A stretch of DNA of 64,000 nt from Fistulifera solaris (taxonomy: Eukaryota): the NCBI GenBank assembly GCA_030295235.1, contig AP026124.1:434001-498000 (forward strand), given 5' to 3'. How positions within the stretch are numbered: the first letter of the stretch is position 1; every line of letters begins with the position of its first letter. A program made the position numbers and the translations under genes. Below, in pieces: positions 24,515 to 30,028 of this stretch. The notes under the pieces are model-generated. The model had not been told where the DNA came from and searched no databases. It saw only the letters and a list, made by a program, of their open reading frames with translations.

Positions 24515-26203
24515 TTAATTTTGTCCTTGCTTTTCTAACCACTTTCGCGCGATGGCTTCGCGTAGCTTCTCTTCCTGCCTTATTCTTTTGTTCCGCTGAA
24601 ACTTTCTCCAGTAAGAGCCATCATCGTTGGGATGGACCACCTCAATGCTCTTCGTCTCCTCGTTTACCAAAACAAGCGCTGTTCCATTTTCTACAACCAT
24701 GACGGTGCGACCGCCCAACGATTTTTGATTGACGACTATTCCCAGCGGCGACAAAGTTTCGGCGTCATACTCCACTAACTGTCCTTGATGTAGCCCAATC
24801 ACTTTACCATCCGCCATGTGCCACCAGCAAACCTTTGAATTGACGGACGCAGCATCGGCGATCGAACCATCCGGCGTCTCGAGGTAGCATCTGTAGAAAA
24901 AAATCGTTTAGTCAGCGTGCGTTATAAATCCGTCGCATAAAACAGTTTTCTCTGCGCTTACCCATCTTCTTCACGCGGAACTATGATTGTCACAATATCA
25001 CAGGACGTGAGCTCCAAACACAGAAATAAGAGAGAATTTCTCATCAATATACTCACCATATGCTTGAAACCAATTGTCGCGATCTGCCTCCTCAACCGGC
25101 TGATTCCATTTCATTTCGTCTGTTAGAAGATCTATTTCTACATCAACTCGAACATTGACATCTTCAGGCGTGCTCAGATGATGATTAATACTATAGATCC
25201 GCAAGCGTTGTTCATTTCCTTGTATCAATCTGGTTTGTCGACTCCCCTCTCGAGTGCTGGCAGGCCCCATGACTCCAACTTGAACAAATGTACACGATCC
25301 TACCTTCGAAATAGAATCCGGATAATCATGGGATAAATGAAAATGCCCCGAGAACCACAGTTTTATTTGTGGATTGTCTTTTATTGTCCGAATGAATACA
25401 TTCCGATTATCGGAGCAGTGATTTAACCAAGCACAACCGTTCGTGACGTGCACGTTTTGCAGAACTCGCAAGCCACTCCCCATAATAGGAGCATGTGAAG
25501 CCACAAGAATCTTCCATCCCTCGGACGCCGGATGCTCCTGGACTGTTTGGACGAACCATTGTACTTGATCGTCGTCAATGTGGACTTCGTGCGAAGAATA
25601 TGGCGCATCACGGAAGCGAACAGTCGAGATTCCCATTAATACCGTCTTTTCACCGATGTAGCGCTTGAAGTATGGAGTTTCGAGGTGAAAGCAATCCATC
25701 CAAGCTTTTAGATTTTCTTCATCGGATGCAAACTCATCGAGTCCTTCCAAATCATGGTTCCCTGTCACCAGATTGTAGGGCATTTGAAAACCATCCAAAA
25801 ATTCCTTGGCCATTTGAAAGCTAAGAACCGTTCCAGCATCGCCCGGTTCGTGTCGAATATCTTTTCTACCCAAATCACCCAGTGATACCATGAACGTATT
25901 GAGCCAGTCTCCTTGCTGTTTGTACTTCCAAAGCAATTCCAGTTGATCGGAAGATAAATCCCCAGCACGAGTGTTTTGCAAGGAGTCAATCGTTTCTTTC
26001 ACCGACATGGAGGAAGGTGACATCAAAGATAGCTTCTGACACGCATTCTTGCAATCCTGTCTCGCTTGATAATGACTTGTCATATCATCTTCCATGTGCA
26101 AGTCTCCAAGCACCAGCAGATTCCATGTATCACGGATCCGCACCGACGGAGTGGCCAACGCGTGCGCAGTGTGCACACAAAAGAGGAACGCCAAGCAGCG
26201 CAT
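24515..26203 (-). CDS. Calcineurin-like metallophosphoesterase with signal peptide; introns 24981-25056 and 24891-24961
   Basis: GDLH, LGDLG, GNHD, SHAP, SGHFH. Splicing gives a continuous reading WFQAYVPREEDGCYLE...CWWHMADGK. Confidence 0.85.
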
Positions 26204-26960
26204 TGTATTGAGTCAACAGCGTCTCTTCCTTTGTAATCGAATATACTATTGAAAAACGAATAGTGGGCACCAGCAATAAGGCAGACGTTTATTTTAGTAG
26301 TAGTAGAATGCAAACGTGCGTGTCTTTTCGAGAATTGCCTCGTGACTGAAAATTCAGACCGGAATGCAGTCATGGTTTTTGCTCCTGAATTGACACTTCG
26401 ATCAATAGTAAAATGGAAACGAGCAAATGCCGCTAAAGCCTGGAGTTGTGTCTACGATAGGAAAAACTATTGTAGCTTATAACGCAGCAGAACTATCGAA
26501 GCTTATATATATAGAGTTCTAGCCAGGAAAATAGGCGACACTACAAATATACAAGGACTTGTAGTGGTCACTGAAAGACAAAAAAATCCTGAAGGCTGTT
26601 CGACGCAAAGAACTGATGCGCACCTTGCTACATGCTGCGAAAATAATTGGATAATATTCAAAAGAGTAATTGGAGCTCGACAGACTACAAGCTAAGAGAA
26701 AAGCGAACACTCCGGACTCCGGACGCGTAGTTTAGTTTAGTGAAAGTTCGCGACGATTTTTTCACTCGGTACAGTACCTGGATTAGGGGTCAAGATTTCA
26801 GTCCTTCCGCCCATCCGCGCATGCGCACCTTGACCCCGCATTTTGAAAAAAGCAATGCGACATGCGACGCATGCAGAAAGCAATAACGAACAAGAATTGT
26901 TTGAGAGACACGTGAGAATTCGTTTTACTTTATCAGCAAACCCTCGTCCTATACATCAAA

Positions 26961-28513
26961 ATGAGCTCTTCCGTTTCTTTAAATGGAAACGGTAGTAGCC
27001 ATCATGCCGACTTTGGCAAAGCAATACTTGCTACGGAAGGCTGGCTCGAGCTTTTTCTCACACCCGCCGAGAAGTACAACTTTAGCAAGTGGAATGAGGT
27101 CGTCAAGGACAAGTCATTGGTGCATTCGTTTACGCGTAAACTCTTTGAATACCTTGCAAAGTATCTTCCCGATAATTTGGCGCCGACCTTGCTGACATTT
27201 TCGGGACTCGTCTGCCTTAGTCAAACTTGGTATTTGGCTTACACGTATCAACACATTCATCCGACTGCTTCAACGTGGTTTTCTATGATTGGTATTACGA
27301 TATTCTTCGTCATTAGTTCCCTCTACGGTCCTCATGCTGATCTTATGCGACAGCATACGTCTCTCTCGGATCTCTTCAAGTACGCTTGCGATTCGGCGAG
27401 TGCCGTGTTTCTCACTTTATTGACCGTGCAATCGTTAGGAGGAGACACCTTAGAATTGCAATGGTATGCCGTGCAAGCGGTGCAGCTCGTCTTGTTTTTG
27501 AAGCACCTATCGGCGTTTCGGCGAAAAGCGGGATTGCGGTATCATTTGGGGGCTGGGCCGGGTGAGGTTTTGGTTACTTGTGTCGGTTGCTTGGCCTTGC
27601 GAGCTATTTTTGGCCTCTCGCTTCTCAAGGAAATCGTCGGTACAATATGGGATGCGTACAGTCCACTGCAATTGACGGGAAACGAGTGCATGCGCATTCT
27701 TTATTACGGTCTTCTTGTCAGTAGCCTGATCAATTCGTACTTTCTGAAAAGCGGCTGGACCAAATTCGGACTCTTGACGAGTCTCAGTATGCGATTGATT
27801 CCCGCCTTGCTACTCCATTTCGGTATGGAGCCTTCCCCTTGACGACAGCGGATGTGATCTGCGACGGTCTCTTCATGTCGGTCCTTACTACCGATATCGC
27901 GTTAGCGAAAATGGCGGGTCGTGAATTGCATCCTTGGGTCGTGCTCATGAGTTTGGCAGCCGTGCTCAGTCATAGCATCATCTTGACTCTCGTGTCCATC
28001 TACTTTGTCGGTGTCTTTTCCGATCTTTGCTTTTACTTGAACTTGCCGTTGCTCACGGTTTGCCGCAATGTATACTGCGACGGAGTCTACGACCTTTGCC
28101 ACATTGGGCACAAGCGGGCCTTTCAAAACGCTCTACAACTAGGGAACCGACTGTTTGTGGGTGTGGTCGGCGATAAAGATGCTTCGGAGTATAAGAGACC
28201 GCCGATTATGAGTGCGAAGGAACGATGCGCCGAAGTTGAGGCATGCAAAGCTGTAACAAAAGTGATACCAGATGCTCCTTGCTTTGGCCTTACACAAGAA
28301 TTCTTAGATGAACACCAGATTCACGTGGTCGCCTTTGGTGAGGAGTATCTCGAAAAATACCCCGATCCAAAAGATGATCCGTACTATGGGTATGTTCGAC
28401 AGATTGGAATTGGTGTCCCGGTGCCTCGAACTCATGCTCTGAGTACTTCGGATTTGATCGCAAGAATCCAGAAGATCTCCGCGGATTCCCTCAAGAAGAA
28501 ATCACCAACCTAG
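26961..28513 (+). CDS. CDP-alcohol phosphotransferase-like membrane domain fused to HxGH cytidylyltransferase; frameshift ~27835
   Basis: LPDNLAPTLLT (CEPT-type LAPNxIT), degenerate CDP-AP motif, many TM helices; C-terminal YCDGVYDLCHIGH, YKRPPIM, RTHALSTSDLI. Confidence 0.8.
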
Positions 28514-28935
28514 GCAATTTTTTTGGAACAAAGACTTGTTGCTGACTAAAGAACACGAAAAGGACAAGACGCTAGCGTAATATTCCTCTTGACGCTGCAT
28601 CGTCAGACGCAGCGCTGTGAAAACTACTTTTTTGTCGAGAACAAATACGTAGAATCAAATCTAATAAACATCACGATTTTGGAAGCTTGATTTAAGGGAG
28701 ATCGCAGTCATCGTAATTCGAGTTCGCCATCGAACGAACATAAAAACAAACGTCAAGCCCTCAAGTATTCCAAGCACAGTTCTGGCTTTCCAAACACAAA
28801 TATCAAAACAAGCAAATCCAACAGACTATTTTAAGCTAATTGATGCATGTTGTTTTTATCTTGCAATATCGAGACGATACAAAACAATCAGGTTCCAATC
28901 GAGCATTGGTTCAATTCTGTAAATAAGCCGATCGT

Positions 28936-29139
28936 TTATTTCATCTTATCGGCATTGCTGTTAGGTCCCACTCGCTTTCCACCCATTCCGGTGGCAACAT
29001 TGACGTATCGTCGGTTGTATTGAAGGCGCTTCTTGGCGCGTCCTCGAGGCAATACCTTCTTATCCTCCTGCTTCTCAACCTTTGGGGTTTGTCCCTTTAC
29101 TTTACCAGCGCGAGCCAACGAACCGTGAACCTTTCCCAT
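28936..29139 (-). CDS. RPS30: 40S ribosomal protein eS30 (no ubiquitin-like leader)
   Basis: [21 protein letters not shown]...RLQYNRR...GPNS. Confidence 0.97.
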
Positions 29140-29710
29140 TTTGAATTATTTATTCAAATCACAACTATAAATGAAGCAGAAATGAAACGAAACAGCCAAT
29201 CGTGAGACAGAAGATTCACAAACAAAGTTGCACCGCGACAAAAAAAGCTATTTCGTTCGACTGTCTTTCCCGTAACCCGCGCTGCCCCACTTAAACAGCT
29301 AGTCTCATCTACACGACGGATTGCTCAACTTAACAGGCTCACGAGGACTCCAGTCGTCATGGTTGCTTACCTTCAGCTTTTTACCTTGCAACTTATACAG
29401 TTTTTCGCTGCTGCAATGGATTGCGGGACGTTTTAGTAACAGCGGTAAATCGCTACCGTCTTTCATTCGTCCGCAAATCGCTACGAAAACCGCTACGATG
29501 CGAATGCCTTGATATTTCCCTAAACCTTACTACTACTTACCAGTACCAGTACCAGGTACTTTATGTACCAACAAAACGCACTGGCATCCCATTGATTACA
29601 CAATGCAAAACACTCCTTCATCAAAACTTGTCTGCGTTGATTGTTGATAAATATATCCAAGTAATCTTGTTAACAATTACTCGTTCATCCCTACTTTCTG
29701 ATAGAAAATA

Positions 29711-30028
29711 ATGGTGGTGCGCCTTCGCTTGCAAAGGTTCGGAAGAACACACTCGCCCTTTTATCGGATGGTGGCAGCCAACAACGAAGCACCGCGCGAT
29801 GGGAAGTTTCTGGATATTGTTGGTACTTACAACCCTATTGCGAATCGCGATGGCGTCAAGGAAATTCGACTAAAAACAGATAGACTCAAGTACTGGCTCT
29901 CGGTTGGTGCACAGCCCAGTGATCGAGTGTCTTGGATTTTAGGAAAATTTGGAATATTGCCTCCGCCACCGAAGAAATTCAGTCCACAAAAGATGGTTCC
30001 CAAGTCAGAACGCGAAAAGAAAAAGTAA
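29711..30028 (+). CDS. MRPS16: Organellar ribosomal protein bS16, probably mitochondrial
   Basis: MVVRLRLQRFG..PFYR..RDGKF..GTYNP..YWLSVGAQPSDRV; Pro-rich tail; no plastid bipartite signal. Confidence 0.9.
   Translation: MVVRLRLQRFGRTHSPFYRMVAANNEAPRDGKFLDIVGTYNPIANRDGVKEIRLKTDRLKYWLSVGAQPSDRVSWILGKFGILPPPPKKFSPQKMVPKSEREKKK

Follow-up and report, generated by a model that had tools for sequence, protein, structure and literature searches.

A Fistulifera solaris gene joining a CEPT1/CHPT1-like membrane domain with a replaced catalytic signature to a cytidylyltransferase

One gene across a frame break

The subject of this report is a gene at positions 26961 to 28513, on the + strand, of a 64,000-nucleotide stretch of Fistulifera solaris DNA (contig AP026124.1, positions 434,001 to 498,000; hereafter, the window). 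The gene is intron-less and encodes an integral membrane protein of 517 amino acids (aa), in which a membrane domain homologous to the phosphotransferases CEPT1 and CHPT1 is followed directly by a single HxGH cytidylyltransferase domain. The membrane domain belongs to the cytidine diphosphate (CDP)-alcohol phosphotransferases (CDP-AP) by descent, and most of the residues that define the active site of that family have been replaced, in a pattern conserved across a large clade. As assembled, the window splits the gene into two open frames on the + strand, the first running from the ATG at 26961, the first ATG, to a TGA at 27840-27842 and the second from 27725 to a TAG at 28511-28513. The features are as follows; homologous proteins are cited by P numbers.

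26961..27838, + strand: coding sequence, part 1; codons 1 to 292 and the first two bases of codon 293, colinear with P0183
27834..27842, + strand: frame break; one base missing in a CCCC/TT run, creating the in-frame TGA at 27840-27842
27839..28513, + strand: coding sequence, part 2; codons 294 to 517 and the stop TAG at 28511-28513
27033..28066, + strand: CEPT1/CHPT1-like membrane domain, residues 25 to 369, from profile comparison with the PDB and from Foldseek
27315..27392, + strand: remodelled CDP-AP signature, residues 119 to 144, from alignment to CEPT1
28067..28513, + strand: HxGH cytidylyltransferase domain and 20-residue tail, from PF01467 and PDB matches
28100-28111, + strand: HIGH, from translation
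28190-28204, + strand: YKRPP, from translation
28427-28450, + strand: RTHALSTS, from translation

The first-pass annotation, which was made from the letters alone, proposed a +1 repair near 27835 and a single gene, and public data bear it out. Contigs from four public runs (X1 to X4) were aligned to 26800-28700, and the break was covered by three of them (X1 to X3), from two studies. A frame-restoring insertion of one nucleotide was found in 100% of the contig depth at the break, in one of two forms. A T behind 27838 (depth 10.6 in X1, 4.26 in X2 and 14.8 in X3) occurred in contigs otherwise identical to the window, including two records with 0 other letters changed, and in one contig from a metagenome run. 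A C behind 27834 (depth 15.1, 11.1 and 6.11, respectively) occurred in the contigs of a second haplotype, about 6% diverged. Reading through from either insertion gives ...HFGMEPSPLTTADVICDG... (that is, ...LLLHFGMEPSPLTTADVICDG..., the MEPSPLTT stretch), and the repaired gene is one open reading frame (ORF) of 517 aa (...HFGMEPSPLTTADV...). Moreover, a search with the cytidylyltransferase domain returned P0183, a public 517-aa protein that is continuous across the break and departs from the read-through in only 3 of its 517 residues; it is held by two sources, one of which names it "choline-phosphate cytidylyltransferase." The break region is likewise continuous in all homologues that reach that far. 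Because all contig depth is frame restored, P0183 matches the read-through and the homologues are continuous at the break, we conclude that 26961-28513 is one gene. The frameshift at 27840 is an assembly error or a change private to the window, that is, a missing base and not real biology.

Three further single-base indels separate the window from the window-identical contigs, at 26957, 28518 and 28627, each within a homopolymer run. As all four indels (26957, 27838, 28518 and 28627) sit in such runs, the window assembly probably contains homopolymer-length errors, and other apparent frameshifts in the window are suspect. A 26-nucleotide GT..AG "intron" at 27823-27848 would also restore the frame and was rejected: nine residues present in the homologues would go, the contigs show a one-nucleotide insertion and no joint, and P0183 reads through.

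Two haplotypes about 6% apart in DNA co-occur within runs, and a metagenome run from a separate study contains them as well. A comparison of the two listed 40 differences, with 102 more unlisted, and 38 of the 40 fall inside the coding sequence. When the frame is switched at the break, 32 of those 38 lie at third codon positions and 35 are synonymous. The gene is under purifying selection, which follows the correct frame before as well as after the break.

A CEPT1/CHPT1 homologue with a replaced signature

Automatic annotation gave little for the N-terminal half. No CDP-OH_P_transf model was matched in Pfam even at E<=1, NCBIfam returned zero family matches, and a match to DUF6632 (E 0.0044, under its cut-off) was taken as chance. 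Since Pfam found nothing, the label "CEPT-like" needed evidence of another kind, and profile and structure comparisons provided it. A profile built from the N-terminal half and its relatives matched, in the PDB and with entry names as given by the depositors, human CEPT1 (8gyw, E 9.2e-12), human CHPT1 (9uet, E 7.6e-9), the cholinephosphotransferase entries 8urt and 8ul9 (E 1.3e-8) and a cholinephosphotransferase (Cpt1) entry (8ero, E 2.5e-8). HMMER aligned the motif column for column, with lDaiDGkqARRtnsssplGElfDHgCDs in CEPT1 set over tSsleGlhADrirqrtalGDlfKYsCDs in the family.

Structural models pointed the same way. In the AlphaFold model of P0012, a full-length homologue, the membrane domain was predicted with a confidence (pLDDT) of about 90, and the four significant Foldseek matches were all CEPT1/CHPT1 (E 9.8e-10 to 9.1e-8; target-normalised TM-score, 0.65-0.69), the best being 8gyw_A (E 9.8e-10; TM-score, 0.66). 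A model of the N-terminal part of the window protein (289 aa; mean pLDDT, 78) had the same four best matches, 8gyw_A at E 8.4e-5, with bacterial and archaeal CDP-alcohol phosphotransferases further down the list. The P0012 model has about ten helices, the ninth of them short, and two short strands at the place of the xlCHPT1 lid; the modelled short helix and lid strands agree with the description of xlCHPT1. By profile and by predicted structure alike, then, the N-terminal domain is a true CEPT1/CHPT1 homologue, and the original reading of this half as CEPT-like with a degenerate signature stands.

The excerpts of two structural papers drawn on here define what has been replaced. The CDP-AP signature reads D1xxD2GxxAR...GxxxD3xxxD4, and its four Asp residues hold two divalent metal ions (PMC10156783). 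In eukaryotes it extends to ...G2ExxD3HxxD4, which adds a proposed catalytic Glu/His pair (PMC10182977). In the window, 27324-27392 translates as YGPHADLMRQHTSLSDLFKYACD, i.e., Y-G-PH-A-D-LMRQHTSL-S-DLF-K-YAC-D, exactly as the first-pass annotation had it. Its claim of signature loss is confirmed, but the extent was undercounted, as the replacements also take in D1, the eukaryote-specific catalytic His (Tyr here) and, for this species, the Asn that binds cytidine (Thr here). Position by position, the signature compares as follows.

D1: canonical D, window S
D2: canonical D, window Y
G1: canonical G, window G
A: canonical A, window A
R: canonical R, window D
G2: canonical G, window S
E: canonical E, window D (a conservative change)
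D3: canonical D, window K
H: canonical H, window Y
D4: canonical D, window D

Three of the ten eukaryotic signature residues are kept: G, A and D4. Homology and fold place the domain in the CEPT/CHPT branch of the CDP-AP; it falls short of the PF01066 gathering score (22 bits) and lacks both the four-Asp signature and the Glu/His pair.

Published mutagenesis bears on several of these positions. In the excerpted account of CEPT1, activity is almost lost with D136A or D154A and falls to about 15% with D158A (PMC10156783). In that of xlCHPT1, E129A and H133A almost abolish activity, and two residues bind CDP, Arg119 of the "AR" pair at the diphosphate and Asn64 at the cytidine ring (PMC10182977). 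By alignment, Asn64 corresponds to the N of a conserved APN stretch in the first helix; that stretch, at 27180-27188, reads APT in the window and in P0183, and the N is kept in at least 90% of 120 relatives. Because metal-site Asp residues, the diphosphate-binding Arg and the catalytic His are replaced, the classical Mg-dependent transfer of a phospho-base to diacylglycerol has, judging from these substitutions, most probably been lost.

The replacements are shared across the clade of the window protein. In a first set of 35 members from the first searches (per-position denominators, 33 or 34), D1 was N, S or T in 33/33 and Asp in 0/33, the Arg position was Asp in 25/33, D3 was Lys in 32/34, the His position was Tyr in 34/34, and D4 was retained in 31/34. 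A second set, recruited by searching with the cytidylyltransferase domain, comprised 116 new proteins, of which 96 span the ten positions in full. There, D3 was Lys in 92/96 (the rest being 3 Gln and 1 Arg), the His position was Tyr in 96/96, D4 was retained in 93/96 and Ala in 95/96, the Arg position was Asp in 72/96 and Arg in 1/96, and Asp stood at D1 in 1/96. D2 and G1 vary freely in the clade, with at least 8 different residues each. The segment around the old site, hADRiRQ.t.L..LFKY.CD..sTVfL, is among the best-conserved stretches of the clade's membrane domain. On these alignments the motif change is old and conserved, not a decay of this copy, and the check on orthologs that the first-pass annotation had proposed comes out in favor of both a conserved fusion and a conserved motif loss.

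The cytidylyltransferase and the wider fusion family

The C-terminal half is apparently an intact HxGH cytidylyltransferase, as initially described, to judge from its profile match and its motifs. PF01467 matched with E 3.4e-18 and 66.6 bits (cut-off, 21) over profile positions 1-132 of 133. In the PDB, the domain matched human ECT (3elb, E 2.4e-31) and rat CCT (3hl4, E 1.3e-20). The HxGH and RTxGxSTS motifs and a conserved Lys have catalytic roles in this family, and all are present; H381, G383, H384, K412 and S495 are invariant in 120 relatives with either intact or remodelled signatures. Whole-length alignment gave 76 bits to rat CCT and 68 and 42 bits to the two halves of human ECT, and the 76 bits for CCT and 68 bits for the first ECT domain are too close to decide between the choline and ethanolamine types. 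Source names diverge in the same way, with a choline-phosphate enzyme in one source and, for related dinoflagellate proteins, ethanolamine-phosphate enzymes in another. Neither accessory feature of those enzymes is found. An amphipathic M domain after the catalytic domain is a defining feature of CCT (PCYT1), and the protein ends at residue 517, 20 residues past the STS motif of RTHALSTS, so there is no room for one. The tandem domains of ECT are also missing, as there is a single PF01467 stretch to which both human ECT halves align. A homodimer prediction for two copies of P0183 residues 25-517, run without alignment or controls, scored 0.28 (mark, 0.32), which speaks neither for nor against dimerisation.

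Ten relatives of this domain (P0175 to P0182, P0184 and P0186) are 272-331 aa long, except for two longer ones (P0177 and P0179), and share 58-65% identity with it (window 28052-28510). The two that were read whole, P0175 and P0181, carry two tandem cytidylyltransferase copies and no membrane domain. Two of the ten bear Symbiodiniaceae source names and are called ethanolamine-phosphate cytidylyltransferase. Such tandem soluble proteins, with a cytidylyltransferase of the same subtype, may be either descendants of the fusion or its source.

The fusion extends well beyond the window clade. A profile search returned 1031 representatives at E<=1e-3, 343 at E<=1e-10 and 155 at E<=1e-30. We examined 175 sequences, 174 fetched proteins and the window protein, of which 136 cover the eight classical signature positions. 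The signature is intact (DDGARGDD) in 56/136, and 40 of these 56 include the cytidylyltransferase domain; of the 16 without it, most break off at the domain border or earlier. It is degenerate in 80/136, 41 of which include the cytidylyltransferase domain. Altogether 81 of the 136 carry that domain, and most of the others stop at or before the border. Thus, about 40% of the motif-covering family members keep the signature intact, and the four that were tested (P0033, P0036, P0046 and P0049) pass PF01066 with 47-53 bits. P0034, in which only D1 and D3 are changed, passes with 33 bits, and five proteins with a changed motif (P0012, P0021, P0029, P0030 and P0035) have no PF01066 match at E<=1. 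The intact-motif fusions, namely, those four and 36 others, are presumably bifunctional Kennedy-pathway enzymes, as their sequences would predict. The first-pass annotation had presented the fusion together with a dead membrane domain; the fusion is real, but it is special neither to this lineage nor to the dead form.

Truncated relatives probably have an ordinary explanation. The search with the first ORF gave 28 relatives, and PF01467 was present in six; among the remaining relatives of about 400 aa, most stop no more than a few residues from the domain border. Their end points suggest gene predictions interrupted by an intron or by the end of a contig, not free-standing membrane proteins. 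Eleven predictions (P0001 to P0003, P0006, P0007, P0014, P0016, P0017 and P0022 to P0024), 276-484 aa long and mostly about 400, end no more than about 30 residues past the border, near ...CRNV(YCDG). Their common end point suggests an intron at the domain junction in the genomes of those eleven relatives, which the window gene does not have.

A FastTree phylogeny (98 rows, 474 columns, Shimodaira-Hasegawa-like support only, midpoint root) placed the window in a 23-row clade with support of 100, nested in a 29-row clade (support, 99) and in a weaker 42-row grouping (support, 88), all of degenerate forms only. When sequences were labelled as intact or not, at least 6 changes were forced on well-supported branches. 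The solved outgroups, CEPT1, CHPT1 and bacterial enzymes, all have the signature. As every solved outgroup carries it, the intact state is ancestral by parsimony; therefore, the fusion preceded the loss, and the loss was repeated several times. Elsewhere in the tree (e.g., P0040, P0044, P0071, P0118, P0120, P0138, P0047 and P0091) the signature was lost in other ways, for example by D4 to S or D3/D4 to S/G.

In those other degenerate lineages, the membrane domain is far less conserved relative to the cytidylyltransferase domain, with an identity ratio of 0.49 (231 pairs). The ratio is 0.76 among intact-motif relatives (630 pairs) and 0.71 in the window clade, the last from 5 full-length sequences (10 pairs) whose cytidylyltransferase identities lie in a range separate from that of the intact group. 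By this measure, and in this small sample, the membrane domain of the window clade does not look relaxed.

In the ESM Atlas, P0012 and the intact-motif P0033 were nearest to one 100-member cluster, in which Bacillariophyta is the commonest phylum and PF01066 is found on 36%. A second cluster, which scored 0.76-0.77 and is treated as no more than a lead, has both Pfam families on 95-100% of its members, with Rotifera as the commonest phylum. Among the relatives are Nitzschia proteins whose source name is "cytidyltransferase like protein." A literature search, with subscription journals outside its range, found no paper on a CEPT-like/cytidylyltransferase fusion or on a pseudo-CDP-AP, and the fusion family is apparently undescribed. 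What is already known is the gene itself, which is in public databases under the name of a cytidylyltransferase only. New are the recognition of its CEPT-derived domain, the conserved replacement of the catalytic set across a large diatom-type clade, and the wider, apparently undescribed family to which it belongs.

Three neighboring ORFs have family matches.

24998-26212, - strand: calcineurin-like phosphoesterase (Metallophos, E 7.2e-7)
28936-29145, - strand: ribosomal protein eS30 (S30, E 2.7e-27)
29705-30028, + strand: S16-type ribosomal protein (E 6.4e-26)

The surroundings are a compact eukaryotic nuclear region of ordinary genes with no link to the fusion gene. A scan for bacterial promoters and terminators gave counts at chance level, and is irrelevant to a eukaryotic nuclear gene.

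Possible roles of the membrane domain and comparison with known systems

How the two halves work together can be approached from their ancestry. We lean toward a permanently membrane-tethered cytidylyltransferase, in which the former phosphotransferase domain, through a bound ligand or partner, serves to regulate or scaffold the pathway; the argument is one from sequence. The C-terminal domain would be a working CTP (cytidine triphosphate):phospho-base cytidylyltransferase of the choline or ethanolamine type. In the excerpted description of xlCHPT1, both termini and the opening of the catalytic cavity are on the cytosolic side (PMC10182977). Because of that topology, and by homology, the cytidylyltransferase, which begins about ten residues past the last membrane helix, would lie on the cytosolic face at the mouth of the membrane domain. 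As for the membrane domain, its ancestor would have been a choline/ethanolamine phosphotransferase already joined to a cytidylyltransferase, and in that intact form the CDP-base would have been handed straight to the phosphotransferase. Within the diatom-type clade, a new conserved set (N/S at D1, Asp for Arg, Lys at D3 and Tyr for His) would then have taken over from the two-metal site (D1, D2 and D3), the diphosphate-binding Arg and the catalytic His. The membrane domain would serve as a permanent tether, where CCT relies on a reversible amphipathic M domain, and the conserved polar pocket would probably bind a CDP-base, a lipid head group or diacylglycerol, thereby regulating or scaffolding the pathway.

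Several observations weigh against a tethered enzyme with a regulatory pocket. With Lys, Arg and Tyr in place, the rebuilt site might remain able to bind a CDP-linked group and even to transfer it, and the very high conservation of the former active site fits a still-catalytic pocket as well as it fits a sensor. The identity ratio that speaks for constraint comes from the five clade members noted above. The cytidylyltransferase part of the P0012 model has a pLDDT below 50, and the packing of the two domains is not readable from it. Finally, no RNA run for this gene itself was listed among the runs covering the stretch, X1, X2 and X4 being RNA only by a guess. Its expression is judged from relatives, in which the fused ORF is transcribed, as several marine transcriptome records among them are marked as complete ORFs.

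A bolder version of the ligand-binding idea is possible, and we offer it tentatively: the rebuilt pocket, with Lys for the bridging Asp, Tyr for His, Asp for Arg and a conserved RxRQ loop, might be a functional metal-free site. On its sequence it could be an allosteric sensor that gates the cytidylyltransferase, or a phosphotransferase with new chemistry or one for a diatom-specific head group.

It seems unlikely that the membrane domain is simply still a phosphotransferase, working through a rebuilt site that may need no metal (Lys at D3, the arginines of RxRQ, Tyr and D4) in a bifunctional protein, perhaps with a new donor or acceptor. Such an enzyme would account for the retention of D4 in 93/96 and 31/34 proteins, for the placement of hADRiRQ.t.L..LFKY.CD among the best-conserved stretches of the clade, for a GPGE lid loop that is invariant across the intact and remodelled groups, and for a membrane domain no more relaxed than in intact relatives (0.71 versus 0.76). 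However, three of the four metal-binding Asp residues have been lost, along with the Arg that binds CDP and the His proposed as catalytic, and the excerpted mutagenesis found activity nearly abolished by D136A and D154A in CEPT1 and by H133A in xlCHPT1. For the Arg, the excerpt of PMC10182977 describes binding of the CDP diphosphate, with no Arg substitution in evidence. Moreover, D2 and G1 are free to vary (at least 8 residues each), the cytidine-binding Asn of APN is Thr in this species, and no metal-independent member of the CDP-AP family was found in the literature search, subscription journals again being outside it.

That the membrane domain is an inert anchor for the cytidylyltransferase, a fossil without any ligand-binding role, is improbable. 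The catalytic signature is indeed lost, other fusion lineages have lost it independently (at least 6 changes forced by well-supported branches), and the ratio of 0.49 over 231 pairs in those lineages indicates that the fusion tolerates a degenerate domain. In the window clade, however, the former site has buried polar and charged residues that hardly vary (K in 92/96, Y in 96/96 and D4 in 93/96), the haplotype differences are synonymous in 35 of 38 cases, and hydrophobic helices would suffice for an anchor. The first-pass annotation had listed an anchor, a lipid sensor, a heterodimer partner and a new specificity as alternatives; the strong conservation of the replaced residues, as aligned, argues against the inert anchor without deciding among the other three. 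A broken locus, whether a pseudogene or two genes (one for a membrane protein, the other for a cytidylyltransferase preceded by a short membrane leader), is scarcely credible, for although the TGA at 27840-42 is present in the window, the frame-restoring base is in all depth from three runs, two studies and two haplotypes, the other indels (26957, 28518 and 28627) also lie in homopolymer runs, the 517-aa P0183 matches the read-through, and selection keeps the correct frame on both sides of the break.

If the cytidylyltransferase is indeed bound permanently to the membrane through a converted domain, then phospholipid control in diatoms would be unlike the reversible-binding model of animals, yeast and plants. 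Choline-phosphate cytidylyltransferase is usually rate-limiting in phosphatidylcholine synthesis, and diatoms are major primary producers and lipid producers. If the pocket senses a CDP-base, diacylglycerol or a head group, it would be a different answer to membrane sensing than the amphipathic helix of CCT. With its intact-motif relatives, the protein would represent an undescribed fused form of the last two steps of the Kennedy pathway in many eukaryotes. The family as a whole offers a natural series toward a polytopic membrane pseudoenzyme, from intact bifunctional forms through independently degenerate ones to the clade with a conserved replacement. At a practical level, because Pfam gives nothing for the N-terminal domain and automatic annotation misses it, reconstructions of diatom pathways may misread this gene.

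The protein resembles several known systems, each in part. CEPT1, CHPT1 and yeast Cpt1 (8gyw, 9uet, 8ero, 8ul9 and 8urt) share its fold, with about ten helices and a short ninth in the model, and the window protein keeps their P..APN-type first helix, their GPGE loop and the spacing of their signature. It differs from them in having S, Y, D, S, D, K and Y for D, D, R, G, E, D and H (7 of 10 positions), in a membrane domain that PF01066 does not detect, and in the added C-terminal cytidylyltransferase. With PCYT1/CCT (3hl4 and 4mvc) and PCYT2/ECT (3elb), it shares HxGH, the Lys of YKRPP and RTxxxSTS. CCT has an M domain and a phosphorylated tail; the window protein has neither the amphipathic M domain nor the tail and is provided instead with a polytopic membrane anchor, and unlike ECT it has one cytidylyltransferase domain, not two. 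The intact-motif fusions (e.g., P0033, P0036, P0046 and P0049) were found by the profile of window relatives at E 1e-67 to 1e-103 and have the same domain order and the same cytidylyltransferase residues; they differ in keeping DDGARGDD together with E and H (H in 56/56). Finally, the archaeal IPCT-DIPPS (4mnd) is also a natural fusion of a cytidylyltransferase and a CDP-alcohol phosphotransferase that perform consecutive steps. Its match to the window membrane domain is a weak fold match (Foldseek rank 19, E 0.46, probability 0.97), and we take its domain order to be the opposite one and its cytidylyltransferase fold to be unrelated. Moreover, its membrane domain is of the six-helix prokaryotic kind, and its signature is intact.

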